Program-made: the position numbers and the translations under genes
Part shown: positions 1 to 27,342 of the stretch, in pieces
Layout of the letters: every line of letters begins with the position of its first letter
How positions within the stretch are numbered: the stretch's first letter is position 1
The notes under the pieces: generated by a model
What the model saw: only the letters and a program-made list of their open reading frames with translations
The model's database searches: none
What the model was told of the DNA's origin: nothing
DNA from: Promethearchaeota archaeon
Lineage (GTDB): Archaea; Asgardarchaeota; Lokiarchaeia; Sigyniarchaeales; SOKP01
Assembly: GCA_030599585.1 (NCBI GenBank)
Contig: JAUVNS010000030.1
Location: forward strand, 1-28,283
DNA length: 28,283 bases
Reading direction: 5' to 3'

Positions 1-358
1 CTACGCGATACACATCTAAATCCATAACAATGTCGATGTATCCTTTAATTGTCTTATTGTTGTACACGCTGTAATTCGCGTCGTAATAAGTCGTTCGGGT
101 TTCTCTAAGCATCGTGTTATCGCTTTCGTTATACCAGCTATGTTTCGATTCTATAATATCCGAATAGGTGCCTGTGAAATTAATGATGTTCGAGTCGCCC
201 GACCACACGCGATCCAGCGTAAAGTGATAAGTTGTTTCTTGCCAGCTGTAATCTACGGTTGGTACGGGATCACCCAATACTAGAATAGGACTAAAACACG
301 ATAATACGAACACGCCCAACAAAACAATCGATTTAATTTTCTTTTTTATCTTGAACAC
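1..358 (-). CDS. 5' part of a secreted/cell-surface glycoprotein (runs off the left edge; not in the ORF track)
   Basis: GTG at 358 opens a frame with no stop to the edge: MFKIKKKIKSIVLLGVFVLSCFSPILVLG|DPVPTVDYSWQETTYHFTLDRVWSGDSNIINFTGTYSD... It has a Sec signal peptide and N-glycosylation sequons NFT, NES, NYS and NKT. GC and C-ending codons are visibly higher than in the rest of the window. Confidence 0.85.
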   Translation of the reverse strand, partial: MFKIKKKIKSIVLLGVFVLSCFSPILVLGDPVPTVDYSWQETTYHFTLDRVWSGDSNIINFTGTYSDIIESKHSWYNESDNTMLRETRTTYYDANYSVYNNKTIKGYIDIVMDLDVYRV

Positions 359-718: not shown

Positions 719-1291
719 TCAAAATGAAGCATTCTTGTTGTTAAAATTTTCAATAAAATCTTTGCTTGATTCAATTAATATTTGGCGAATTCTCTCGCAA
801 ATGTTTTTCAAACTAGATTCTGAAACGAAATCTCTCCCAAATTCGCGTAAAATTACGTCCTTAATAGGATCGTCTTGATACAGAACCAATTTCTCAGTAA
901 ACTCTGAAACTATTAGCGACATTGTTCTAAACGAAGCTTTATTTTTTCCATCTCTTCTCAGTTTCTTTATCCACATCTGCTCGAGCTCGGAAAGGTAAGA
1001 ACACGCTAAGGTGTAAATAAAATCCACTCCTTTTGCAGTAATATCGATAACTCGTTTTCCCTCTCCCCAATGACTCTCTATCAGTTGTTTGTTTTCCAAC
1101 TTATCTAAATACTTTGAGACGACTTGGTGTTTTTTGTAATTAAAGTGATACATAATGTCTTTAATATAAGTTGGCTTTCCTTTATCATTGTTATTTTTTA
1201 TTAACTTTAAAAATTTAATTGACAACGGAGCTAACTTAATACCAAATCCATTTTGAGACAAATTATTTGATATCGTCATTTTTTCTCTCAC
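719..1291 (-). CDS. Winged helix-turn-helix (MarR-like) transcriptional regulator with C-terminal extension
   Basis: YIKDIMYHFNYKKHQVVSKYLDKLENKQLIESHWGEGKRVIDITAKG matches the wHTH pattern (VS..L..LE...LI ... I.IT.KG). Confidence 0.75.
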   Translation of the reverse strand: MREKMTISNNLSQNGFGIKLAPLSIKFLKLIKNNNDKGKPTYIKDIMYHFNYKKHQVVSKYLDKLENKQLIESHWGEGKRVIDITAKGVDFIYTLACSYLSELEQMWIKKLRRDGKNKASFRTMSLIVSEFTEKLVLYQDDPIKDVILREFGRDFVSESSLKNICERIRQILIESSKDFIENFNNKNASF

Positions 1292-1825
1292 TCAAAAACT
1301 ATTATATTATCATTCTAATTTTTAGTAAAAAAATGCATATTCAAAAGATAAATTTAAAGAGTCATTACATTTCTTTAAAAGATCGGATCGGTTTAAACCA
1401 AAGATACTCGTATCTCACCTCAGCTGTTAGAAAATTTGCACTTTGATAGATCTTAGTTCTAAGAAATTCCGAACGAGCCTAATTTTTCAAGGTAAACTTT
1501 TGCAAATCCAACTGGCGCAATTGCTGATTGATTTTTCTTTAAGTCTTTGTATTTTTCAGATTTACGAAAATCACCGCTTTTATTTTCTGAGTGGGATTTT
1601 AAGAAAACCCTATTTAAATTACTACAAGTTTCATAACCAAAAGGGTTAAAGTAAAGCTCACTTTTTTTCAATTTTAGCATCTCTTACTCGCAAATTATCT
1701 TTATCCGAAATACATCCATTTGTCTTCTATATTTTTTGTAGTTATCATTGTTTAAGAAAGAACCCTAAAACACATACAATTCAATAAGCTCTAAATATGT
1801 TGATCTAAGCGCAAAAAAAGAAAAT

Positions 1826-2923
1826 TTGTATAGAAAGGTAAATTCAGAGTCTAATTTCAATGAAAATTCCTTTGAAAAAACGAAAGAAAATATAGATAGA
1901 GTATTTGTGGCAAAAGTACTAGGAGTCTCAATGTATCCCTTATTAAAACCAGGGACAGATGTTCTTTTAAAAACAATGCCACAAGGCTATAAATATAAAA
2001 CGGGAGATATCATCGTTTTTAGTAGGGATAAAATAAATATTATTCATCAAATTATAGATAGCTACGTTTATAACGGCATGACATATTATGTCACAGGCGG
2101 TTTAAATCCTGATACAAATCCATATGTAGACAGTTCAACTATATCAGAAGAACAAATTATAGGGAAGGCTGATGTATCTAAAGAAGCTTTAGCAGGGATT
2201 GATGAACTTGTTAAGCAAGGAAAAGTCCATTTTATTGGAGCTTTTGGGATGATTAATTATGGCGATTCAGATGCCTATAGATCTGTCTTTGAATATGGAT
2301 TTAATAATTTACGTGAGCAAATTGATACATTTGATAAATCCTATAAATTAAAACTATTAAATGAATTTCTAAAAGCAAATCTTTTCGATACACTTGTAAA
2401 ATACTCTCAATATAAGGAAAATGAATATAAAAAATATGCAGAAAAAGATGGAGTAATAAAAAACATTCATAATCCAGCATGGAATAATGATGATAATGCA
2501 AAAAGAGTACAGCGACTATTATGGGGGATTTTGACCGATTTTCGACATCCACTTACAGGAGAAAAAGTAGAAAGTCTTGAAGAATGGTTATCCTTCCCAC
2601 TGCATCATTGGAGAACAGCAAGTGGACAGCGGAATAATAAATTTGACTGCAGATTTTTATCACTAATTGTATTACCTCAGAGTAATAAATATGGTGGTGA
2701 TGGACATTCTAAAATTACAAGACAAATAGACATCGATGAAAAAAATAATAATATAAACAAAATAGGGCTTAAATGGGAAAATCAAATAGGAGAGGCAATC
2801 AAGTCAATTCTAGATGGCAAAGCACCCTCTGAAGGATGGAATTCTGCAGATCAAGAAGCATTTGAATCTTATGCTGAGTCAATTGAGGAAGTTAGAGAGC
2901 TAATAAAAATGTTCATAACATAA
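1826..2923 (+). CDS. Orphan polymorphic-toxin C-terminal cassette: S26 (Sec11-type) peptidase domain + HNH-like nuclease
   Basis: GVSMYP (Ser35), GDIIVF, IIHQI (His74), YVTGGLN, VDS and IIGK match S26 boxes, with no TM anchor. The C-terminal PLHHW..NNKFD..SLIVL..GHSKI is HNH-like. The frame is open from 1769 with only a TTG start and no clear RBS. Confidence 0.7.
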   Translation: MYRKVNSESNFNENSFEKTKENIDRVFVAKVLGVSMYPLLKPGTDVLLKTMPQGYKYKTGDIIVFSRDKINIIHQIIDSYVYNGMTYYVTGGLNPDTNPYVDSSTISEEQIIGKADVSKEALAGIDELVKQGKVHFIGAFGMINYGDSDAYRSVFEYGFNNLREQIDTFDKSYKLKLLNEFLKANLFDTLVKYSQYKENEYKKYAEKDGVIKNIHNPAWNNDDNAKRVQRLLWGILTDFRHPLTGEKVESLEEWLSFPLHHWRTASGQRNNKFDCRFLSLIVLPQSNKYGGDGHSKITRQIDIDEKNNNINKIGLKWENQIGEAIKSILDGKAPSEGWNSADQEAFESYAESIEEVRELIKMFIT

Positions 2924-3044: not shown

Positions 3045-3863
3045 ATGGATCGTAAGGTATTAGTGAGTGAAGAACTCAAAATCATCGAAGATATTGAAGC
3101 TGAAACAGATAAAGAAGTATATATTCAGGTTAATAAGAACAATAGAATTAAAACATTAAGAATAAAAGAATGTGGTTTAAATCATATTCCTAAGAATATA
3201 CATAGATTAGAATTTTTAGAATCACTTGTCATTAAAGAAAAGAATCTCTCAGAATTACCAAATTCAATTGGAAGTTTATCAAGGTTAGAAAATTTAGTCA
3301 TTTATCAAAGTAGTATTAAGAATGTAGCTGAATCTATAGTTAATTTAACGAATCTTAAACAATTGCGGCTTGTGAATAGTGAAATAGAAGACTTTCCCAA
3401 GCAAATTTGTGCACTTCCAATTTTAAAAGTTCTTGATCTAAACCAAAATAAAATACAAGAACTTCCCGAATGTATAGGAGATTTAATTAATCTTACTAAT
3501 ATATTTTTAAATAATAATAAATTAAGTTCGCTTCCCGATTCTATCTGTTTTCTTACAAATTTGAATAAACTTGTTCTTGATAATAATCAAATAGCGAATC
3601 TCCCTGAAAATATTGGAGATATGAGTAGTTTAGATCACTTAACATTAAATAACAATAAACTTGAGCAACTTCCGGATTCACTTGTTAGTTTAAAAGGGTT
3701 AGACTATTTAGAATTGAATAATAATCATTTTAAAGAATTTCCAGTGGTCCTTAAAAAGTTAGACTTACTCAGTTGGCTTCAGCTTTCTGGAAATCAAATA
3801 CAAGAATTCCCAAAAAAGGTGGGACATGCAAAATTAGTTGGAAATGGTGTGTATGAAGAATAA
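3045..3863 (+). CDS. Leucine-rich repeat protein (candidate immunity protein)
   Basis: About ten 23-aa repeats of type LxxLxLxxNxLxxLPxxIxxLxx. ATG with upstream GAGG/AAGGT and a TTATTATA element. Confidence 0.92.
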   Translation: MDRKVLVSEELKIIEDIEAETDKEVYIQVNKNNRIKTLRIKECGLNHIPKNIHRLEFLESLVIKEKNLSELPNSIGSLSRLENLVIYQSSIKNVAESIVNLTNLKQLRLVNSEIEDFPKQICALPILKVLDLNQNKIQELPECIGDLINLTNIFLNNNKLSSLPDSICFLTNLNKLVLDNNQIANLPENIGDMSSLDHLTLNNNKLEQLPDSLVSLKGLDYLELNNNHFKEFPVVLKKLDLLSWLQLSGNQIQEFPKKVGHAKLVGNGVYEE

Positions 3864-5945: not shown

Positions 5946-6611
5946 AGAATAAAGAATACTCATCCTGGAAGAAATTTCTTAAGTAATTTATTCCAAAATT
6001 ATCGAGTAGGTATTAAAAATCCTCTTTATCATATAAAAATCAATGAGATTTTCGTAAATAAATTTTTATGGAATAGATTCCCTGTAGAATTTTTCCGCTT
6101 ATATCAGCTTTTTAATAAGGATTTATTTCTGAAATTGCCTTTAGGTACCCAGTTTTCAATCGCAAAAACTATTGGAATAATTGAAACTGAAAGAATTGGA
6201 ATAAGAATTATAAATAAAGGTGAGAGCTCAGAAAAAATAGTTATTACTACAAGTGGTAAAATTTATTGGTTGGAATTAGGAAATCCTGATGGGGGTATGG
6301 AACATATTTTATATCCTAGATTAGATTTTGAAGGTTTCACTAATCTTAATTCTCATCCCAGAGGTCATTTTCAAGATTTTTATAATTTAGGGTATAAAAC
6401 CAAAGAACAGATAGCGGAATTAATATTAGATACGCTTAGAACAAAAGAATATATATCTATAAGAGGTGACAAGGGAAACTTACTTGTATTTAAATTTGTA
6501 AGAAATGATGGTAGTCACTGGTATTTAGCAGTTGCTGTTGGTTTCAATGGTTATATTGTATCCGCATATCAATATAATCAACAACAAGGAGATAATTTAT
6601 ATAAAGAATAA
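5946..6611 (+). CDS. Orphan toxin tip, BECR-fold RNase-like (ORF track 6135-6611; frame open from 5946)
   Basis: GKIYWLELGNPDGGMEHI...HFQDF..LG...LAVAVGFNGYIVSAY matches the WLE.G....G..HI...H...F ... V.VG.NG.IV.A signature seen in RHS/CDI-type toxin C-termini. No in-frame ATG lies upstream of the toxin motif. Confidence 0.65.
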   Translation, partial: RIKNTHPGRNFLSNLFQNYRVGIKNPLYHIKINEIFVNKFLWNRFPVEFFRLYQLFNKDLFLKLPLGTQFSIAKTIGIIETERIGIRIINKGESSEKIVITTSGKIYWLELGNPDGGMEHILYPRLDFEGFTNLNSHPRGHFQDFYNLGYKTKEQIAELILDTLRTKEYISIRGDKGNLLVFKFVRNDGSHWYLAVAVGFNGYIVSAYQYNQQQGDNLYKE

Positions 6612-6642: not shown

Positions 6643-6960
6643 ATGGAAATTATAATAAAATCTGTTGGAATTGGAGCGAAACATGAAGGTTATAACCCAT
6701 ATCTTTACATATTAGCTAAACTTAGGAGTGGAAAAGAAATTACATTATTTCTTTTCTTTACATATTTAACTCCCGATCCAGTTTACCACCTCGTTATGCT
6801 TCAAAGCTTTATGAATTCTGAATTAATCGAAAATCGCTTAAACTTCTACAGAATGGAAGCTATTCCAGGAAACGATATGGGAGAAATTTATACATATCCC
6901 AAGCTTTTAAATTCGTCTTACTCAGTTTTTATTTATCTCAAATTTAGAAATCCAAAATGA
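6643..6960 (+). CDS. Small protein directly after the toxin tip; candidate immunity protein, possibly 3'-chimeric
   Basis: ATG with GAGGT RBS at 6631-6635, 31 nt after the toxin stop. Confidence 0.55.
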   Translation: MEIIIKSVGIGAKHEGYNPYLYILAKLRSGKEITLFLFFTYLTPDPVYHLVMLQSFMNSELIENRLNFYRMEAIPGNDMGEIYTYPKLLNSSYSVFIYLKFRNPK

Positions 6961-8356: not shown

Positions 8357-9739
8357 ATGAAATCCAAATCTATTAATGAAAAAAAAAAAAAAATTACTAG
8401 ATCCATGTCAGATTTAAAATTTAAAAAGCATACCCAAGAAAAATTGGATGAAATAAATTATTATTATAAAACTTGGTTTAAAATAGTTAAAAGACAAAAT
8501 TGTTACATAATTGACGCATATGCCGGAACTGGTTATGATCATATAGATACCGAAAAATTACCAGGTTCAGCTTTATTAGCGGTTGATTTATTTAAAACAG
8601 ATGCACTAAATAAATTTAAACTCATTCTTATTCAAATCGATCCTGAACAATGTGAATTATTAAAAAGAAATATATTAGATTTTATTTCAAAAAATAATCT
8701 AAGCATCTCTCTTAATGAACAGATTCAAATCTATGAAAACGATTGGGTACTAGTTATGGATCAGATTATAAATAATACGAAAGATGGTGTTCGATTATTT
8801 TTTTTAGATCCTACTGGAAATAAGTCATTACCTTGGAATGAGTTAATTAAGTTAGTTATTCAAGGTAAGAGTGAATTTGGTTATAAAGAGAGTGGTGTCG
8901 AGTTATTAATTAATTGGGGATGGCATGGTGTAAGAAGAATAATAGGAAAGTATTTTAGTGATAGAATTAACCATTCAGAGGAAGATAGAACAGAAATCGA
9001 GAATTTACATAATTTTTTTGGACCCTTAGATTGGAAGCAAATAGCTAATAATTATGAACCAAATATCTTTGATAAAAATAATAATGAACAAATCGAGAAA
9101 TTTAGTGATGAGCTTGTACAAGAATACATAAAACCCTTTTTTAAATATTTTAAATATTTATGCATTCATCCAGTATATGCGCGTATAAAAACTAAACAGG
9201 TAGGGATCAAAAAGAGAGGAAAAATAGTCTATTATCTTATTTTTGCATCAAATTATATTGATGCTCCTAATATTATCAGTCAGAAATTTAAAGAGTATAT
9301 AAATAAAGAATATTATCTACCAAGAAGCCAGAAAAATTTGACTGAATTTTTTGGAAAGAATATATCAAAAAAAGAACCAGTAAGAAGAATTACAATAAAT
9401 GATAAAATAAAAAATTTGCAGAAAAAATTGAAGTTAAGTTTAAATGAAAAAACTATCAGAATTATAAAATATCTATATAGAAGGCGTTCTTATGACTATG
9501 GTTGCTTTGATTTTGCGTTATACAATGAGTTCAATATTGATGAATCTGATTCAGACTTTAAGCTTTTACTAAATAATGAAATTATACAAATAAGAAAAAA
9601 GAATTTTAAATCTGGAGATGTAGGAACATATCTATTTTTGGATCATAAAACCTTAGTGAATCGTAATGATTATTTATATTTCAAGGACAAAATATTCCAA
9701 TACAAAAAAGGACGTTATTTAGAAATTCAAGAAAATTAA
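8357..9739 (+). CDS. tcmP: Three-Cys-motif partner protein (TcmP / GMT-type SAM-dependent methyltransferase-like fold with C-terminal wHTH-like region)
   Basis: HTQEKL...YY..W, YIIDAYAGTG, GSALLA, FFLDPTG, ELLINW and YYLIFAS are the TcmP motif series. The true start may be the ATG at 8405. Confidence 0.85.
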   Translation: MKSKSINEKKKKITRSMSDLKFKKHTQEKLDEINYYYKTWFKIVKRQNCYIIDAYAGTGYDHIDTEKLPGSALLAVDLFKTDALNKFKLILIQIDPEQCELLKRNILDFISKNNLSISLNEQIQIYENDWVLVMDQIINNTKDGVRLFFLDPTGNKSLPWNELIKLVIQGKSEFGYKESGVELLINWGWHGVRRIIGKYFSDRINHSEEDRTEIENLHNFFGPLDWKQIANNYEPNIFDKNNNEQIEKFSDELVQEYIKPFFKYFKYLCIHPVYARIKTKQVGIKKRGKIVYYLIFASNYIDAPNIISQKFKEYINKEYYLPRSQKNLTEFFGKNISKKEPVRRITINDKIKNLQKKLKLSLNEKTIRIIKYLYRRRSYDYGCFDFALYNEFNIDESDSDFKLLLNNEIIQIRKKNFKSGDVGTYLFLDHKTLVNRNDYLYFKDKIFQYKKGRYLEIQEN

Positions 9740-9794
9740 GTTTTTTATTCGAAAATGACAAATGTTAACCAACAAAAGATAATAAACTTAAGTA

Positions 9795-10742
9795 TTAAGA
9801 AGTAATCCCCTGTGTTTTTACATCATTTAATATCATCATTTTTATGATTGATTCTTTCCATTTTATTCTTGGATGATTATATAATTTCTCATAGTATTGA
9901 TAAACGTGTTCAAATTTTAACCGGGGTTTTATAAATTTGATAAACTCCTTTATTTCCCCTGTTCTTAGGGCAATTGGAATATACTGCGTTTTCAGTAAAC
10001 CAATCCAAATAGTTCCTATGTCTCTTTCATAATTTAAAGGAGATAAATAAGGTTCTAATCTCTCGATTAATTTGAATGGAGTGGAATCCAGTAGAGGTTC
10101 AATACTTATTGAAGTATTAAATCCATTTACTGTTGCATATTGGAGTGATTCTAATCTTTCTTCAAAGGTTGGAGCATTAATTTCTAAAATTTTTAGGATT
10201 CTAGAACTGGTAGAACCAATAGTAAATCGATAGGTCATTGTTTCTTTGTAATCTTGAAATAATTTGCATAACTTCTTTACTACTTTTAAAGAGGGTTTAA
10301 CAGTCACTAATACAGAGTTATCTGCTTCTAATAGTTTTTTTAATACTATTGTGCAAGCTGAAAAATAGGGTTCGTCAAGAATTATATTATGAGACGTTGG
10401 AAACATTATATCGTAGGGTTGTGAGCCTTTCTTCCTAACTTTAGAATATTTCTTATCAACAGCTCTAGAGTTTATTTCCATATTTTTCCAGGTTTCTTCA
10501 GTGCATCTTTTATAATGCTTTGCAATACCTTTTGCATAACAATATAGGCAATACATTCTACAGCCCTTAATACAATTAATTTCTCTTCTGGCCCATTCTC
10601 TAGTTCCCATTTTAATATTAGATAAGAGATTTTTTTTTTCTTCCATTGAAGTAGTTCGTTTCAACTTTAATTTATAATTGTTATTGTTGTTATCTAATAT
10701 AACATTGCTTTCAGTTGTGCAGTCAAAAGTTCTACTATTCAT
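9795..10742 (-). CDS. Radical SAM protein (SPL/DUF5131-related), convergent partner of TcmP
   Basis: GTREWA..EIN...GCRMYCLYCYA (Cx3Cx2C), EINAPTFEERLESL, SISIEP, IWIG. The start may be further downstream. Confidence 0.85.
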   Translation of the reverse strand: MNSRTFDCTTESNVILDNNNNNYKLKLKRTTSMEEKKNLLSNIKMGTREWARREINCIKGCRMYCLYCYAKGIAKHYKRCTEETWKNMEINSRAVDKKYSKVRKKGSQPYDIMFPTSHNIILDEPYFSACTIVLKKLLEADNSVLVTVKPSLKVVKKLCKLFQDYKETMTYRFTIGSTSSRILKILEINAPTFEERLESLQYATVNGFNTSISIEPLLDSTPFKLIERLEPYLSPLNYERDIGTIWIGLLKTQYIPIALRTGEIKEFIKFIKPRLKFEHVYQYYEKLYNHPRIKWKESIIKMMILNDVKTQGITS

Positions 10743-11233: not shown

Positions 11234-12547
11234 CTATATAATGACCGCACATATGATAATTTTAGGTTTTGAATTAGATTTTTTTCTTTCTTTCTGATAT
11301 TTCTTTACACTAATAAATTCTCCTAAATCAGAATTAATCTTGTTTCTAATTTCTATTAACGATTTACTCTTAGAAATAATTTTAAAAAAAATGTCATCCC
11401 TACTAGTCAGAAATAATAGAGTAGATATAACATTTTTTACATCTTGAGAGGTAAAATTTTGAGATTCAAAACTAAAAAATTCTTTTTTTAGACCTACTTT
11501 AAATGGTTGTATCGATTCCTCCATTTTTCCATCTAATAATAATATAGTTCCTTTTAAAAAATATCCAAACCCATCATAAGGTATTAACTTCGTATACTTG
11601 TCAAGTAAGTCAATAGCTGGTTTAAACTGGTTTGATTTCACTAAAACAAATGTTAGAAATAGAATAATTAATCCATTACTGGAATTAATTTCTTGAATTG
11701 CTCTTAAATGTTCAATAAATTCAAATTTATCTTCAATCTCTAATTCAATCGTTATAAAACTCATTAAAACAACGACTATATAAAATAGGTTGAGGGGTTT
11801 GTATTCAATCATATTCATATTAACAAGATATTTTTCAGCTTTCTTAAAATCACGTTCTAAGAAATATCTCCTATATTTAACCGCAAAAATTATAAATCTT
11901 TCAATTAGAGAATACCTTGATTCCACTATCAATTCATTACTTTCAAGCTCCTCAATTAACCACTGAAAAAAAATAGAAAACTCACAATTATGCTCAATAT
12001 CATCGAATAAAGAATCAAATAAAATAATATTCGGAAACAATATTAGTTTAAAAACATCTTTAAGTGAGGAACACATATTAATTAACTCCTCAAAAATCCC
12101 TTCCTCCATATTCGATATTAGTAATTTTCCTGAAAAAAATGAAGCATATCTGAGACAAATCCATAAATATACTCTAATTAATAATTTCTCATTTGAAATG
12201 CTTGGATTTTTTAAAAATTCGAATATCATTCGATTTGACCAGGCATTAATCCTAAACTTTTTAATAGAAACACCAGGATTTAAGATATATTCAACTACTT
12301 TTTGGATTGAGAAATCATTCACTTTAACTCCTTTTGTTAAAAATCTTTCTGAGCGTATTTTTAAATAATCTAACATTTGTTCCTTTGTATTTTGAGTAGA
12401 TGATTCATAGTTAGATAGATAAGAATCTAAAGGTAGATTTAGGAGCTTAAAATTTATATCTTCTAATTCTTTAATAAGTGAGTTAATTTGAAATGTTCTC
12501 AAATGGTTTATTACTTCTGTCTCAACTGTTTTTATTTCATCTGCCAT
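11234..12547 (-). CDS. Helical hypothetical protein with C-terminal TPR motifs
   Basis: QFKPAIDLLDKYTKLIPYDGFGYFLKGTILLLDGKMEESIQPFKVGL is TPR-like. AGGA RBS. Confidence 0.75.
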   Translation of the reverse strand: MADEIKTVETEVINHLRTFQINSLIKELEDINFKLLNLPLDSYLSNYESSTQNTKEQMLDYLKIRSERFLTKGVKVNDFSIQKVVEYILNPGVSIKKFRINAWSNRMIFEFLKNPSISNEKLLIRVYLWICLRYASFFSGKLLISNMEEGIFEELINMCSSLKDVFKLILFPNIILFDSLFDDIEHNCEFSIFFQWLIEELESNELIVESRYSLIERFIIFAVKYRRYFLERDFKKAEKYLVNMNMIEYKPLNLFYIVVVLMSFITIELEIEDKFEFIEHLRAIQEINSSNGLIILFLTFVLVKSNQFKPAIDLLDKYTKLIPYDGFGYFLKGTILLLDGKMEESIQPFKVGLKKEFFSFESQNFTSQDVKNVISTLLFLTSRDDIFFKIISKSKSLIEIRNKINSDLGEFISVKKYQKERKKSNSKPKIIICAVII

Positions 12548-12774
12548 AATTAATCCTTTTTAAATGGATTTTCAATCACTATTACTAATTAAGATATATA
12601 TTACTTCTGATTATAACTCTTGCCAAGTTTACATGTAGATTGTAGTTTTTAGATTTAATAACCTTTCCATCTTTTATACGCTAATCTCTTTTGAATTTCA
12701 AAAATTATTGTAATTTTAATTGATTCAAATTTAATATTAAAAAAAAAAAAGTAGTTAATTTTTAAGTTCATCGA

Positions 12775-12960
12775 CTATATATTGACCGAAGTAATCCTGA
12801 CTCTCGACCTTAAAGTAATTATTATTGTCTGTTTGTGTTTAAAATAGAGAAAGACAGCTATGCTTGGATCTAATGTTCTATTTTTCATTAAATCCTGAAT
12901 TGTAAGTATGTTCATATTCAATTTCCTAATGTCCAATACAAAATGATTGAAATTTAGTGT
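12775..12960 (-). pseudogene. Fragment of a VirB11/CpaF/FlaI-type secretion ATPase
   Basis: HFVLDIRKLNMNILTIQDLMKNRTLDPSIAVFLYF matches the IRK...T...L...T......FL segment that precedes Walker A. Walker A itself is lost. Confidence 0.6.
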
Positions 12961-13120
12961 TTTTAAATTAGACGAATATAGCGGGTCTTTAAGCGAATTT
13001 ATACTTGGGATCGTTATTGGGCTTATCATTTTCTTAGTAATTATCGGACTTATCTTCGGATTTCTCGGTTGGGCTGGAGAATCTTTTAAGGATCTTTATA
13101 ATTTGACCGTGACTGGATAA
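12947..13120 (+). CDS. Small Flp/type IV pilin-like protein (57 aa; not in the ORF track)
   Basis: TTG start: MKFSVFKLDEYSG|SLSEFILGIVIGLIIFLVIIGLIFGFLGWAGESFKDLYNLTVTG*. Gly, then an early Glu and a long hydrophobic helix, as in class III signal peptides. The 5' end may be a junction. Confidence 0.5.
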   Translation: MKFSVFKLDEYSGSLSEFILGIVIGLIIFLVIIGLIFGFLGWAGESFKDLYNLTVTG

Positions 13121-13417
13121 TATTATTATCTTCCTTAATAATTACAATAAAGTTTACTAAATTCAGATTTTTAAATCCTTCCTTAAGTTTATTATTATAA
13201 AAAATATATAAATAACCAGAATAAGCGAAATGAGTACCTGATCAAATTTATAGATTGAAAATCTGAAAGTTAGATTGCCGCATAATATAAATCAGTGTAT
13301 ATTTTTTTACAAATCACTTAAAAAAAAAATGAAGTTAGGTTAGGTTTTGGTTTTTCTCTAGCTCCGTTCCGCTGAAGTATTGCAACCAGATGTTAATTCA
13401 ACGCGTAAATAAAAAGT

Positions 13418-13957
13418 TTAGTAAGGATCACTATATATTACTTTGATGTATTCTATGTATAAAGCTGGTCTTGGGTAATGATACCACCATGAAGGCCCAT
13501 GATCGATTGTTATATATTCTACTCTTTTATTCGAATCTAATGTATATCCTTCTGTATCATAACCTCCTCCAGTTGGGTATTCATCAAAACGATCACTTCC
13601 TCCTCCATAATAATATACAATTATACGCAATGGAATACCACTTGCAGCGTCATAACGAAATTTCAAACTAAGATATACAACAGGGTAATTGGAGGAAGGA
13701 TAATTAAATCCGATTGTCACTCCAAATTGCCATCCTATAAATAAACCATAATCCGTCGAATGCCAATGCACTTCATCACTATCATCATATTTAAGGCTGT
13801 CTACGTCACCATATACATCGTATCCATAATATTCAGAAAAACCATTAGCATATTTTGTTACGGGAGGTCGGTATGCTACAGTTAGAGGAGCTATCAAGAC
13901 AAAACCACAAGCAAGTAAACAAAAGAAACTAATTTTTTTAATCTGCTTTAATCTAAT
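13418..13957 (-). CDS. Secreted Tyr/Trp-rich beta-rich protein (ORF track 13418-13897; signal peptide extends to an ATT codon)
   Basis: The in-frame upstream extension IRLKQIKKISFFCLLACGFVLIAPLTVA forms a complete signal peptide. AGGAG RBS at 13968-13964; TTTAAATA TATA at about 14036-14043. Confidence 0.75.
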   Translation of the reverse strand: MRLKQIKKISFFCLLACGFVLIAPLTVAYRPPVTKYANGFSEYYGYDVYGDVDSLKYDDSDEVHWHSTDYGLFIGWQFGVTIGFNYPSSNYPVVYLSLKFRYDAASGIPLRIIVYYYGGGSDRFDEYPTGGGYDTEGYTLDSNKRVEYITIDHGPSWWYHYPRPALYIEYIKVIYSDPY

Positions 13958-16550: not shown

Positions 16551-17453
16551 TCAAATTCTTTTTCTTTCTTTTTTTATTAGGTATAAATAATAGATTGAGA
16601 GATATAGCTCTGGGGACAATTTAAAGGTGATAAATACATAGAATAGGACTCCAAAGAAGGATGTAAATAACAATAAAGTTTGATGAATTTTATCATGTGG
16701 AATTCCAATAGAGGGTAAATAACAAAGAGTAGTCAGCCGTAAGATATTTAAAAAATACAGACCTAGATTCGTAAAAATAAGAACTTTTGTCTTTCTCCAT
16801 AAGAGATCTTTCTTGTTATCTGAAGAATTAGACTGGGGTATTAAAACAATTGATCCCGTAATAATACTAAAAAAGGGTGCAGCGGTACAACGATTTACTA
16901 TAACAGCAGTCCAAGTACTATTAGGAACAAAAATTGCGGGATTTCCTCCCCATCCCGGGGGAAAGATTACTTCTGCGTTTGAATTAAAAATCAAATTGAG
17001 AAAGAATACAGTATTAATTGAGGTAATTTCGTTTAACCAATAATTTATTTCCATATAAAGCCATAAATAAATTAGAAGAGATAATAACGGAGCTCCCAAA
17101 ATGAAAAGAAAAATTGAATTTTTAGAAAATGAATATTCTTTTCCATTATGGAGTAGTAATGGAATTTCATGATTATTTTGTTTAAATTCATAATTATTTT
17201 CAATATTAATTTGTTTTAATTTACATTTACTATTTAGTGCCTTTTCATTATAGTGCAATTTTCTTATACTATTATGAAATCTATCAACTAAAATATAACT
17301 GAGAATTACAAATATTGTGAGTATGGTTATTACCATTATGAATTTTGCGTCTAACTCCATCTCATTAATGAAAGTTCCCATGAGAAAAGCTAACAATATC
17401 ATTAGTGATAAAAAGACCCATATTTTTATTTTATTGCTAATATTCTGATTCAT
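16551..17453 (-). CDS. Exosortase/archaeosortase family protein (archaeosortase H-like)
   Basis: Multi-TM protein with IVNRCTA (Cys189), LNILRL (Asn236/Arg239) and KIH (His257), the family Cys/Arg/His triad. Confidence 0.85.
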   Translation of the reverse strand: MNQNISNKIKIWVFLSLMILLAFLMGTFINEMELDAKFIMVITILTIFVILSYILVDRFHNSIRKLHYNEKALNSKCKLKQINIENNYEFKQNNHEIPLLLHNGKEYSFSKNSIFLFILGAPLLSLLIYLWLYMEINYWLNEITSINTVFFLNLIFNSNAEVIFPPGWGGNPAIFVPNSTWTAVIVNRCTAAPFFSIITGSIVLIPQSNSSDNKKDLLWRKTKVLIFTNLGLYFLNILRLTTLCYLPSIGIPHDKIHQTLLLFTSFFGVLFYVFITFKLSPELYLSIYYLYLIKKERKRI

Positions 17454-17550: not shown

Positions 17551-19440
17551 TTAATTAATCGTGCATAATTTGGTTTTGATTTTTCTGATAATAAATTCTA
17601 TTCTCGTTTTTATTCTATTTTCCTTTGGAGCTCTTAAATATAAATAAATAAGAATCCATATAATAAGAATCCAAAAGTAAATGTATCTACTAGAAAGAAA
17701 TATAATCCAAGACATAATCAATGGAAATAAATACCTCTTTTGAAATTTATATTTTTTTCCCTCAATTTCAGTTGCTTCTAAAAGCGATAAATCTCTAAAA
17801 TCAAATAATATTGAAATAAAAGGTACTAAAAGAATTAAATAATATTTATAGCTTCCTCGTGGATAAAATAATTGAATTGATATTATTATTAAAATTGAAA
17901 GAAAAATAGTTTCTATGAAACTAGAATTCTTATTAGATCTCATTATATTTCTTTTCGATATAAGATATTCTAATGTATAAAAATATATTTTCAATAAACA
18001 TGAGAATAATAAAATATAAAACCCAAGAGCATATGCTATGATGAAAGTTATAACTTTTGGGGCTTTTACCAATAGAAAAAAAGTATTGAAATTAATCGCT
18101 TTTCCCTGATCCATATCAAAAGTTAATAGATATTCAATTGGAATTGCAATATTACCAGTATAACTTTGAATATACGATTGAAAATTGGTGATTAAAAATG
18201 GTAATGAAATTAGCAACAATGTAAAGCAAAATATCATTGTATAGTAAAATACATACTTCATTATCATTTTAATTCGCTTTTCTCCTTTTTCATGAATTAA
18301 TAGAAGAAGTAAAATTGGAAAAAAAAAAAGAGCAAATTGTTTGTACAATACACCAATACCTAAAAAAAGCATTGAAAGATGATATTTTTGAGTAAGGACA
18401 AAATAAAATGAGAGAATAACAAAAAATGTAAATATTGATGGATTTAACCATAAAAAACTTGAATAAATTATCGTAAAGGGATTGATAAGGTAGAAAATCA
18501 TCGAATAAATCGAATACTTTTCATTCTCTGTAGTTTTCTTTGAAATCAAATAAACTATATAACCCGTTCCTATAGTTGACAAGAATAGGGGAATTGCTGG
18601 ACTCCAGATCGGGGTTGTAAATAAATTAAACATTCCAAGTGTTAAGATAAAAAGTGGACCATAAGAATAATGAGCATATTCTTCAGAATATGGAAACACC
18701 CCATTTTTAAATAGATCCACCCATTCCAAATACCAACCCTCATAGTCTCGATACATTTCAAAATGAGTAATATCTAAAAGCGGTGATATTAAAGACGGAT
18801 TCTCGATTAATAATTGAGGTAATATCGCTATGTGAATGAAGAAGAATGTTAAATTTATATTTACCCCTATAATAAAGTATCTCTTCCACCCATTTAAACA
18901 CCACGCTAACATCCCAAAAGTAAATAAAAACCCTACAGACATAACAATCAAACCATAATAATAAGTAGGAGAAATTATAGTATAATTATAATTAAAACCT
19001 AAAAATAAAACAGTATCATCATTATTCAAAATTAGAATATAAATTATCCCCTTGGTTGTAATTCTAAAAGAGTCTTGAAATATTGTCACATTTCTAGATA
19101 AGTCGTAATTTTCTTTCAAAATTCTAATGGTAATATAATTTTCTATAGAATCATTTGCTATAAAATTCTCATATTCGCTTGAATTCAAAAATACGACTGA
19201 TAAATTAGATTTTCCCTTAAATTGAGCTGAAAATTTAACTTTGAAATCTTTTCCAGAAATATCTATATTTGGTTCAATTGAGAAATTATAGGATTCATAT
19301 GGAGCCATAATTAGATTATCATAAAATTCTACTGATTTAATCTCTGCGGGAGCTAAATTGAAAATCAAGCCAATAGCAGAGATTGTTAAGCCAAGAATGA
19401 GGAACATTTTTCTCAAGTAATTTTTCTCAAATCTACACAT
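17551..19440 (-). CDS. GT-C fold (GT87/PIG-M-like) membrane glycosyltransferase with N-terminal extracellular beta domain
   Basis: YRDY...W...G.FPY....YSYGPLF, FYLINPF and GIGVLYKQFALFFFP motifs; many TM helices; several sequons in the N-terminal domain. Confidence 0.8.
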   Translation of the reverse strand: MCRFEKNYLRKMFLILGLTISAIGLIFNLAPAEIKSVEFYDNLIMAPYESYNFSIEPNIDISGKDFKVKFSAQFKGKSNLSVVFLNSSEYENFIANDSIENYITIRILKENYDLSRNVTIFQDSFRITTKGIIYILILNNDDTVLFLGFNYNYTIISPTYYYGLIVMSVGFLFTFGMLAWCLNGWKRYFIIGVNINLTFFFIHIAILPQLLIENPSLISPLLDITHFEMYRDYEGWYLEWVDLFKNGVFPYSEEYAHYSYGPLFILTLGMFNLFTTPIWSPAIPLFLSTIGTGYIVYLISKKTTENEKYSIYSMIFYLINPFTIIYSSFLWLNPSIFTFFVILSFYFVLTQKYHLSMLFLGIGVLYKQFALFFFPILLLLLIHEKGEKRIKMIMKYVFYYTMIFCFTLLLISLPFLITNFQSYIQSYTGNIAIPIEYLLTFDMDQGKAINFNTFFLLVKAPKVITFIIAYALGFYILLFSCLLKIYFYTLEYLISKRNIMRSNKNSSFIETIFLSILIIISIQLFYPRGSYKYYLILLVPFISILFDFRDLSLLEATEIEGKKYKFQKRYLFPLIMSWIIFLSSRYIYFWILIIWILIYLYLRAPKENRIKTRIEFIIRKIKTKLCTIN

Positions 19441-21405: not shown

Positions 21406-21741
21406 TTATGATTTAATAATTTGAATTATTTTCTTAATTACTTCATCCATCTTTTTATTTTTTATTGTTCCAGTCTTGTGTAAAATTATATGATAATCGG
21501 CAGTAAAAAGACGATTTGGACGAATATTGCTATTTCCTCTTTTTAATTTTCCCTTATCAAAATCATTATTAGTCAAAGGGATTGAATAATTATCAGATTT
21601 AGTTTGACTTGTTATTTGACATAGAATGAGATCATCACCTTTTAAGTCGGCAATTACTAACGCAGGTCTGCGGGATGAATGAGAGAGATCGGAAAAAGGA
21701 AAAGGAACGACAACTACATCTTTTTTCATAAATCTTTCCAT
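21406..21741 (-). CDS. mazF: MazF/PemK family endoribonuclease toxin
   Basis: DVVVVPFPFSDLS...RRPALV, LCQITS, SNIRPNRLFT. The ATG at 21741 overlaps the end of the antitoxin gene. Confidence 0.92.
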   Translation of the reverse strand: MERFMKKDVVVVPFPFSDLSHSSRRPALVIADLKGDDLILCQITSQTKSDNYSIPLTNNDFDKGKLKRGNSNIRPNRLFTADYHIILHKTGTIKNKKMDEVIKKIIQIIKS

Positions 21742-21884
21742 GCTTCTTCTTCCTCTGGTGAAAGCCAATCTTTCTTTAAGCTTGATTCACTCATTATCGA
21801 ATTTTCTAATTGAGCAATGCGTGGAAACGAGGAAGGATGTTCAATTTCTTTAATTTGTTTTTTTGCAAAAAATAGTTTTGCCAT
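21726..21884 (-). CDS. Cognate antitoxin (DUF2281-like, 52 aa; not in the ORF track)
   Basis: MAKLFFAKKQIKEIEHPSSFPRIAQLENSIMSESSLKKDWLSPEEEEAWKDL*. The SE..L.KDW..PEE.EAW.DL tail is typical of antitoxins preceding this MazF subgroup. Confidence 0.8.
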   Translation of the reverse strand: MAKLFFAKKQIKEIEHPSSFPRIAQLENSIMSESSLKKDWLSPEEEEAWKDL

Positions 21885-26520: not shown

Positions 26521-27342
26521 ATGAAGCATAAGAAAGAAATTGTTCTATCAGTTTCAATTTTAGCAATTGCTCTGTTTGGACTCTGTTTCAATAGTGTTTT
26601 CGCTGCTACTTTAGACGAAGCCAATTCTTCAGCTTACGGTACCGCAGGAGCTAGCGTATATCAAAGTAGAGTTGATATACAAGGTGATGCTGTGTATGAA
26701 GATGCGTCTGGTTCAACTGATTATGCGGTATTTATTACGGCATCAAACTGGTTTTGGACTACAGGTTACAGCACAAAAACATATGCTTATATTTATGTCT
26801 CTGCCCATTATTACTATGAATACGATTCTGGAATAGGTAATTATAACATATGGGATGCCGTTGATACTAATCTTATATCTTGGGAAGGTGATTATGTTTT
26901 TGATCACGATGGGGAGAGTTGGGAATGGTGGGTAGATTCAAACGAATATTACTGTAATGGGAATGATGAAACTACAACTTCATCGTGTTCAACAAGTTAT
27001 TCCGCTTCTGGGTCTGATCAAGGCACTTGGCAACTCTTAGGGTATTTTTATGTTTATAAAGCAGCAAACCGACATAAATATGACGCGCTTTTAAAATTAC
27101 AGATTGATAATTCTAAAGCAGAGGAATATATTGAGGGCCGGAGGTACTATGATCCTGATGACGGTTGGTATACTGAAACTATAAGTGAGATAAGAATAAA
27201 GATGTATTTTAAATTTTATTTTTACTCATGGTGGGCATGGCATTTAGATAAAACGCAAACTCATATTTTAGGTGACGGAGTCGGGGCTGGTGATTTAGCA
27301 AGCATACCATTAGTTGAAGGAACCGTAGATGGGCTCCAATAA
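26521..27342 (+). CDS. Secreted acidic Tyr/Trp/Ser/Thr-rich protein
   Basis: GGGAGG RBS, signal peptide ending VFA|A, two Cys in the mature part, no C-terminal anchor. Confidence 0.9.
   Translation: MKHKKEIVLSVSILAIALFGLCFNSVFAATLDEANSSAYGTAGASVYQSRVDIQGDAVYEDASGSTDYAVFITASNWFWTTGYSTKTYAYIYVSAHYYYEYDSGIGNYNIWDAVDTNLISWEGDYVFDHDGESWEWWVDSNEYYCNGNDETTTSSCSTSYSASGSDQGTWQLLGYFYVYKAANRHKYDALLKLQIDNSKAEEYIEGRRYYDPDDGWYTETISEIRIKMYFKFYFYSWWAWHLDKTQTHILGDGVGAGDLASIPLVEGTVDGLQ

Follow-up and report, generated by a model that had tools for sequence, protein, structure and literature searches.

A Sec11-type peptidase domain as the putative self-cleaving release module of a polymorphic toxin family in Lokiarchaeia

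What a signal-peptidase-like domain does in a soluble protein, directly ahead of an unrelated nuclease-like domain, is the question raised by one open reading frame in the 28,283-nucleotide stretch of Promethearchaeota DNA analysed here (the window). An earlier note, made from the letters alone, had taken the frame for a toxin whose S26 domain frees its C-terminal part. As judged from sequence comparison, the ORF and the LRR gene next to it form an orphan cassette, toxin plus putative immunity gene, that belongs to a polymorphic toxin family confined to one family of Promethearchaeia (Lokiarchaeia). Along the ORF a Sec11-type S26 domain is followed by a helix, the A-F-G site before M142 and an HNH-fold tip, with the LRR gene behind it:

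1826..2923, forward strand: orphan toxin module ORF, 365 residues counted from TTG 1826; 78% identical over its full length to the C-terminal part of a 1009-residue trunk-fused protein
1833..1880, forward strand: dispersed 34-48 bp imperfectly palindromic DNA repeat, a putative recombination site; core 1837-1870, in-frame reading KVNSESNFNENS
1901..2179, forward strand: soluble Sec11/S26B-type peptidase domain, residues 26-118, with S35 (1928), H74 (2045) and D102 (2129)
2180..2251, forward strand: family-specific extension from the structural model, with helix 119-130, strand 135-141 and the predicted scissile bond between A-F-G and M142 (ATG 2249)
2249..2920, forward strand: putatively released tip, a helical spacer plus an HNH-fold nuclease domain with H260 (2603), H261 (2606) and H294 (2705); model pLDDT 76
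3045..3863, forward strand: LRR protein, the putative cognate immunity protein (Pfam LRR_14/LRR_8)

The frame is open from 1769 and stops at 2921-2923, and the earliest possible start is TTG 1826, with no obvious Shine-Dalgarno ahead of it, which agrees with the earlier description of a frame opening at 1769 without a credible start; the residue positions given there (S35, H74, A139-F140-G141 before M142 at ATG 2249, H260, H261 and H294) are likewise correct when counted from that TTG. A frameshifted 5' extension of the ORF within the window was rejected, the upstream frames being closed and containing opposite-strand remnants. Named homologues belong to Promethearchaeota/Lokiarchaeota, and the S26 toxin module was present in 19 of the 161 genomes of the class Promethearchaeia (Lokiarchaeia), all from one family. 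The profile search and the genome loci together gave 85 distinct S26 modules with a helix and a strand beyond the peptidase core; these homologues are kin, and counts over them overstate independence. A search of the phylum beyond the family returned 5 matches that covered the peptidase core alone (profile positions up to 91), a metagenome scan gave just weak matches restricted to that core, and no relatives of the module were found on viral contigs. One divergent S26 module without the helix-strand motif, followed by a long unrelated C-terminus, is a natural exception (L046:2038-4761), and in a close homologue (P0004, L204:10001-11099) a frameshift splits the HNH tip with the LRR gene left intact.

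The peptidase domain scored 55.1 bits against TIGR02228 (archaeal signal peptidase I; curated cut-off 51.85), its S35, H74 and D102 aligned to human SEC11A/C (profile, E 3e-5), and its structural model matched SipA, SpsB, SEC11 and LexA (Z 7-8.5); both the Ser-His-Asp residues and the fold of the S26B/Sec11 type are present. Among the modules, the catalytic residues were the most conserved columns (S in 65/65, H in 79/80, D in 79/80). No transmembrane segment was found in the toxin ORF (highest Kyte-Doolittle 19-mer 1.06), and the membrane anchor expected beside a Sec11 catalytic domain is missing; in the host's own canonical membrane Sec11, encoded on contig C22, hydrophobic segments lie to either side. 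The missing anchor and the presence of this canonical enzyme ruled out a housekeeping signal peptidase, and the domain is evidently a Sec11 derivative. The soluble Ser/His S26 domain of the earlier note was thus recovered, as was the short helix that it placed next (119-130), and the hydrophobic stretch beyond proved to be a predicted beta-strand (about 135-141) and not a transmembrane segment. With signal peptidase I (Sec11, S26B; TIGR02228) the domain has in common the triad, the fold and a -3/-1 small-residue site, but it is anchor-free on both sides, and its putative substrate is part of the same chain, about 25 residues beyond the core.

Signal peptidase I cuts by the -3/-1 small-residue rule, and in these modules a site of that type and an intact S26 active site sit in one chain. 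A small-x-small pattern occupied the predicted cut position in 82 of the 85 modules; over 69 neighbouring positions its frequency averaged 4% and never exceeded 34%. P3 was A, V, G or T in 83/85 and P1 was G or A in 84/85, the lone Arg at P1 occurring in a truncated copy with an altered catalytic motif. Homology among the modules stopped within a residue or two of the predicted site, and median identity to the toxin ORF was 40% over the 100 residues before it and 15% after. In none of the structural searches did residues 131-141 align to a bound peptide, so that these searches were uninformative on the cis geometry. Because the site is conserved to this degree, we consider that the S26 domain probably cleaves in cis between G141 and M142 and releases the tip, and we put the probability of this reading at about 0.72.

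The 74 tips found behind S26 fell into 27 clusters, several of them made up only of truncated sequences, so that a conserved S26 domain and an A/V/G-x-G/A motif are followed by unrelated C-termini, as the earlier note had predicted; it had also expected some modules inside much larger proteins, and S26 homologues of 1009 and 1255 residues do hold the module internally. The tip classes were His-His...His (15, the window's class), BECR-like (13, with weak PBECR1 matches), PD-(D/E)xK restriction-type (7), HExxH metallopeptidases, a kinase-like pair and a toxin deaminase. On the S26 tree these classes needed 28 changes, the minimum being 10, and well-supported sister S26 modules bore different tips. 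A conserved N-terminal part joined to unrelated C-terminal toxin domains, as in polymorphic toxins, is therefore present. The window's own tip had no match in Pfam (including HNH), PDB-sequence or Atlas-feature searches. The ten best structural (VIA) matches of its model were all HNH nucleases, each at a modest Z (4.2-5.6), with retron PtuB, Cap5, Cas9, McrA, IscB and EndoVII as the HNH matches; the best Foldseek rows were mostly Cas9 HNH and weak. H260, H261 and H294 were invariant in 12 relatives, and the beta-beta-alpha fold and conserved His of HNH (His-Me finger) nucleases were thus found, at modest fold scores, in the domain that the earlier note had called HNH-like.

The LRR gene starts 121 bp after the toxin ORF. 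The window's HNH subtype has an LRR gene of the same kind next to it with or without S26, other subtypes have other families in that place, and the downstream gene family tracks tip class and not S26. Two further marks of polymorphic toxins were found in this adjacent gene that varies with the tip and in orphan tip/immunity cassettes, of which the window holds two and L002, L203 and other loci hold more. We infer that tip and next gene follow the pattern of toxin-immunity pairs, and LRR immunity proteins are known in bacterial polymorphic toxin systems (PMC3482391).

Every long N-terminal extension of the S26 modules matched the last few thousand residues of membrane-anchored giant proteins of 12,000-14,500 residues, the matching part being their C-terminal trunk, which was found in 43 of the 161 genomes. 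The carriers, 11,000-20,000 residues long, have at their C-terminal end Gly/Ala-rich hydrophobic helices, then a release module and last a variable tip; a giant of 12,290 residues has N-terminal membrane helices, a LamG domain and such Gly/Ala-rich helices ahead of its tip, and Pfam matches to Rhs or haemagglutinin domains were absent from the giant carrier. The window's genome (G000) has three intact giants of 13,906, 13,858 and 14,552 residues on contigs C23, C24 and C47. They have the trunk in common but differ in their tips, a homologous secreted-protein gene precedes each of them, and one of them ends in an HNH-like tip with an LRR gene next. ParB-like and primase-like genes were noted upstream of the giants on C23 and C24.

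About 13 S26 modules are fused in frame to the trunk, with up to about 1,700 residues of it. The genes that combine S26 with trunk either run off a contig end or are internally deleted or orphan forms, so that export of an S26-type toxin is putative. S26 is an optional module, one of several in the pre-toxin slot, since it was absent from all 18 giant frames of more than 9,000 residues and from the 43 trunk tails examined. The slot can also be filled by a ubiquitin-like domain (Pfam ubiquitin, E 1e-5) that ends in GG or a similar small pair and is 30-50% identical to the host's own ubiquitin-like protein. Such domains, mostly with GG or a similar small pair at the end, were located as follows:

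L045:447-1706; L141:1100-2338 and 11540-13136; L044:1430-2993; L203:13141-14367; L092; L108: ubiquitin-like domains in the pre-toxin slot

Their occurrence in the place of S26 suggests that the slot serves tip release, possibly by a deubiquitinase in the case of the ubiquitin-like modules.

The left boundary of the window's cassette is the DNA repeat at 1833-1880: identity to the nearest homologue was 20/20 within the repeat and 7/20 just upstream of its left edge. Pairs of loci had a common upstream flank and a different downstream one, or the reverse, with the switch at the repeat, and at trunk junctions the repeat lies in frame, its in-frame copies keeping their codons (Val GTA 13/13, background 34%; Ser TCA 9/9, 15%; Lys AAG 9/9, 25%). 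The proposal that S26 itself is the recombination anchor therefore needs revision, in that the sharp exchange point is this upstream repeat; exchange behind S26 was also seen, which makes S26 a second, looser anchor. Copies of the repeat occurred in 93 of the 161 genomes (0 for reversed-pattern controls) and numbered 8 in the window's genome, mostly intergenic (0 in a shuffle), and they often stood in co-oriented arrays at 0.5-3 kb spacing with unrelated cargo genes between. Arrays around ordinary cargo (acyltransferases, hydrolases, toxin-antitoxin genes) were observed at L174-L187 (e.g. G072:C19, G056:C392, G023:C171) and on C3 and C9 of the window's genome, many of these copies bearing integrase-operon upstream sequence on their left.

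At 10 distinct loci a distance of 79-80 bp separates the repeat from the start of a divergent gene for an RHH protein, the first cassette differing each time, and where the locus is intact this gene heads an operon with a tyrosine integrase. At L203 four toxin cassettes, each starting at the repeat, stand behind the integrase operon: two with S26, one with a ubiquitin-like module and one of another type. On C32 of the window's genome the repeat next to the integrase operon is missing; the related element there spans C32:204286-211455 and carries primase-like, ParB-like, HTH, integrase and RHH genes. Against TIGR02249 (IntI; cut-off 265) the integrase scored 51 bits, and its best match was XerA-like, also below the respective cut-off; the repeat showed no long, stable hairpin of the attC type, the window's copy having a z of about 0. 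A classical integron (IntI/attC) was ruled out by this integrase score, far under the IntI cut-off, and by the missing attC-like fold. On balance we favour a recombination site, with some reserve, and the repeat could instead be MITE-like and used by homologous recombination. Repeat and integrase together suggest a system of cassette exchange, not described before, that is present in most genomes of two genera.

In the mechanism that we propose, an anchor-free Sec11 derivative would fold its own C-terminal strand (135-141) into its own substrate groove and cut between G141 and M142; the HNH nuclease would thereby be freed, much as bacterial toxins are by HINT or caspase-like domains, and the LRR protein would neutralise the tip in the producer cell. 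Less firmly, an XerA-like tyrosine integrase may recombine copies of the upstream repeat, by which a silent or weakly expressed cassette would become fused in frame to a trunk or placed beside an integrase operon. At somewhat less than even odds, and hence tentatively, Lokiarchaeia may run integrase-driven toxin shuffling, in which a 34-bp in-frame site in giant contact-toxin genes accepts cassettes of release module, tip and immunity gene and the same site also builds ordinary cargo arrays; the release module would then be either a self-cleaving signal peptidase that has been domesticated or a ubiquitin-like domain that a deubiquitinase cuts.

The sequence fits cleavage in trans as well as in cis, and the cut could be made by another copy of the module or by the host's membrane signal peptidase; S26 would then act as a maturase on other molecules, or chiefly as a scaffold that presents the site. 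UmuD, which belongs to the related S24 family, is cleaved intermolecularly, and a canonical membrane Sec11 is at hand on C22 of the same genome. Against this, triad and site are kept together at a fixed distance in every intact module, and the hydrophobic h-region that a host signal peptidase would call for is missing, so that we regard trans cleavage as quite improbable. We judge in the same way the idea that the A-x-G strand is an uncut structural element or self-inhibitory pseudo-substrate, with S26 cutting the upstream trunk or target-cell proteins or being a linker: a packed beta-strand also needs small residues and most giants work without S26, but the end of homology so close to the site is the pattern of a processing site, and the presence of ubiquitin-like GG modules in that slot suggests that its function is release. 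That M142 is an internal translation start, giving a separate tip with no proteolysis, would suit the Met at P1' in 54 of 85 modules and the GGAG eight bases before the ATG in the window copy. Yet among 34 junctions a start codon at P1' is missing from 9 and a Shine-Dalgarno-like word is present in only 7, and all synonymous codons occur at P3 and P1, from which we conclude that constraint at the site acts on the protein; an internal start is very unlikely indeed.

An alternative of another kind agrees with cis cleavage and differs in the target alone, the cassettes being intracellular addiction (toxin-antitoxin-like) modules of an integrative element and not exported weapons, in which self-cleavage frees an LRR-checked nuclease. 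Many S26 cassettes are indeed trunk-less and stand beside the integrase operon or ordinary TA pairs, many have a TTG or ATG just before the repeat, and no S26 was seen in an intact giant (18 frames of more than 9,000 residues). The in-frame fusion of about 13 S26 modules with the trunk speaks against it, as do the same HNH and BECR-like tips, with matching next genes, at the ends of trunk-fused proteins and of intact giants without S26; we think it unlikely while granting it some chance. Self-cleavage that would free the tip of a putatively exported toxin remains our preferred reading.

LexA, UmuD and lambda CI cleave themselves at a small-residue bond. These S24 proteins, of the same clan, have a fold in common with the toxin S26 (Z 6-7) and are soluble, but they use Ser-Lys, are cut N-terminal to the core and need RecA, whereas the toxin S26 has Ser-His and its site lies C-terminal. 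Zhang et al. 2012 (PMC3482391) classed peptidases just before the toxin domain as processing enzymes, and the pre-toxin autopeptidases named there for bacterial systems are HINT, caspase-like/CPD, papain-like, ZU5, PrsW and the PVC metallopeptidase. The present family resembles the bacterial polymorphic toxins of that paper, as far as its available text describes them, in its large carrier, pre-tip peptidase, variable tip, orphan tip/immunity cassettes and LRR-type immunity. It differs in that the peptidase is S26 (the terms S26, LexA and signal peptidase are absent from the available text of PMC3482391), the carrier is an archaeal giant and a DNA repeat, short and dispersed, is linked with exchange.

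Aloposons of Heimdallarchaeum (Wu et al. 2022, PMC8813620) are likewise Asgard mobile elements with giant genes and partition-type genes upstream; compared by description only, their proteins are of 3,000-6,000 residues, in tandem and integrated at tRNAs, and the paper nowhere speaks of toxins. Integrons, including archaeal ones (Ghaly et al., bioRxiv 10.1101/2022.02.06.479319), also have a divergent tyrosine integrase, an adjacent site and co-oriented repeats between cargo, but in the repeat system cargo faces either way and a 34-48 bp site is read in frame within a toxin gene. No description of an S26 toxin-release module was found in the literature covered; an earlier mention is possible in a 2019 mBio survey of archaeal polymorphic toxins, outside that coverage.

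If our reading is correct, the signal-peptidase fold joins the short list of toxin-release autopeptidases, and a housekeeping membrane enzyme has been recast as a soluble self-cleaving domain. The abundance of giant proteins in Asgard archaea has been noted (bioRxiv 10.1101/2023.11.21.568195), and these giants, so far unexplained, would gain a function: weapons of competition, paired with LRR immunity proteins, in the prokaryotes most closely related to eukaryotes. At 125 residues, the S26 module is small enough for a direct cleavage test.

The DNA around the window's copy contains the following features:

1..358, reverse strand: 5' part, apparently truncated, of the secreted-protein gene that precedes giant toxin genes; 73% identical to the gene upstream of the C24 giant
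719..1291, reverse strand: winged-HTH gene of the same mobile-region kind (weak Pfam HTH_45); 79% identical to the copy in the integrase-bearing element on C32
1462..1683, reverse strand: remnant of a ParB-like gene of the kind that lies ahead of giant-toxin loci; three intact copies (C23, C24, C32) show 43-54% identity to it
1703..1754, reverse strand: remnant of a restriction-endonuclease-type toxin tip; 94% identical at the nucleotide level to the tip belonging to an S26+REase cassette in L067
5946..6960, forward strand: second orphan pair, a start-less BECR-like tip (5946-6611; 49% identical to the last 207 residues of the 12,290-residue giant) and a short immunity-type gene (6643-6960)

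Contig C39 overlaps the window's start by 107 bp and then continues into unrelated DNA. The gene at 6643-6960 resembles, by eye, the gene after the 12,290-residue giant, and no repeat was detected ahead of the second orphan tip. The window's copy is best read as a stored orphan cassette in a decayed region, and it may be silent, given its TTG-only start without a Shine-Dalgarno and the gene remnants around it.

Elsewhere in the window, two Tyr/Trp/Asp-rich secreted-looking proteins without Pfam matches are encoded at 13418-13897 and 26521-27342, and a PemK/MazF toxin gene lies at 21406-21768. The three-Cys-motif partner protein TcmP (TIGR04474, above cut-off) is convergent with a radical-SAM-like gene at 8357-10742, and an archaeosortase H-like gene (16551-17453; under the equivalog cut-off) adjoins a PIG-U/PMT-like membrane glycosyltransferase gene (17551-19440).
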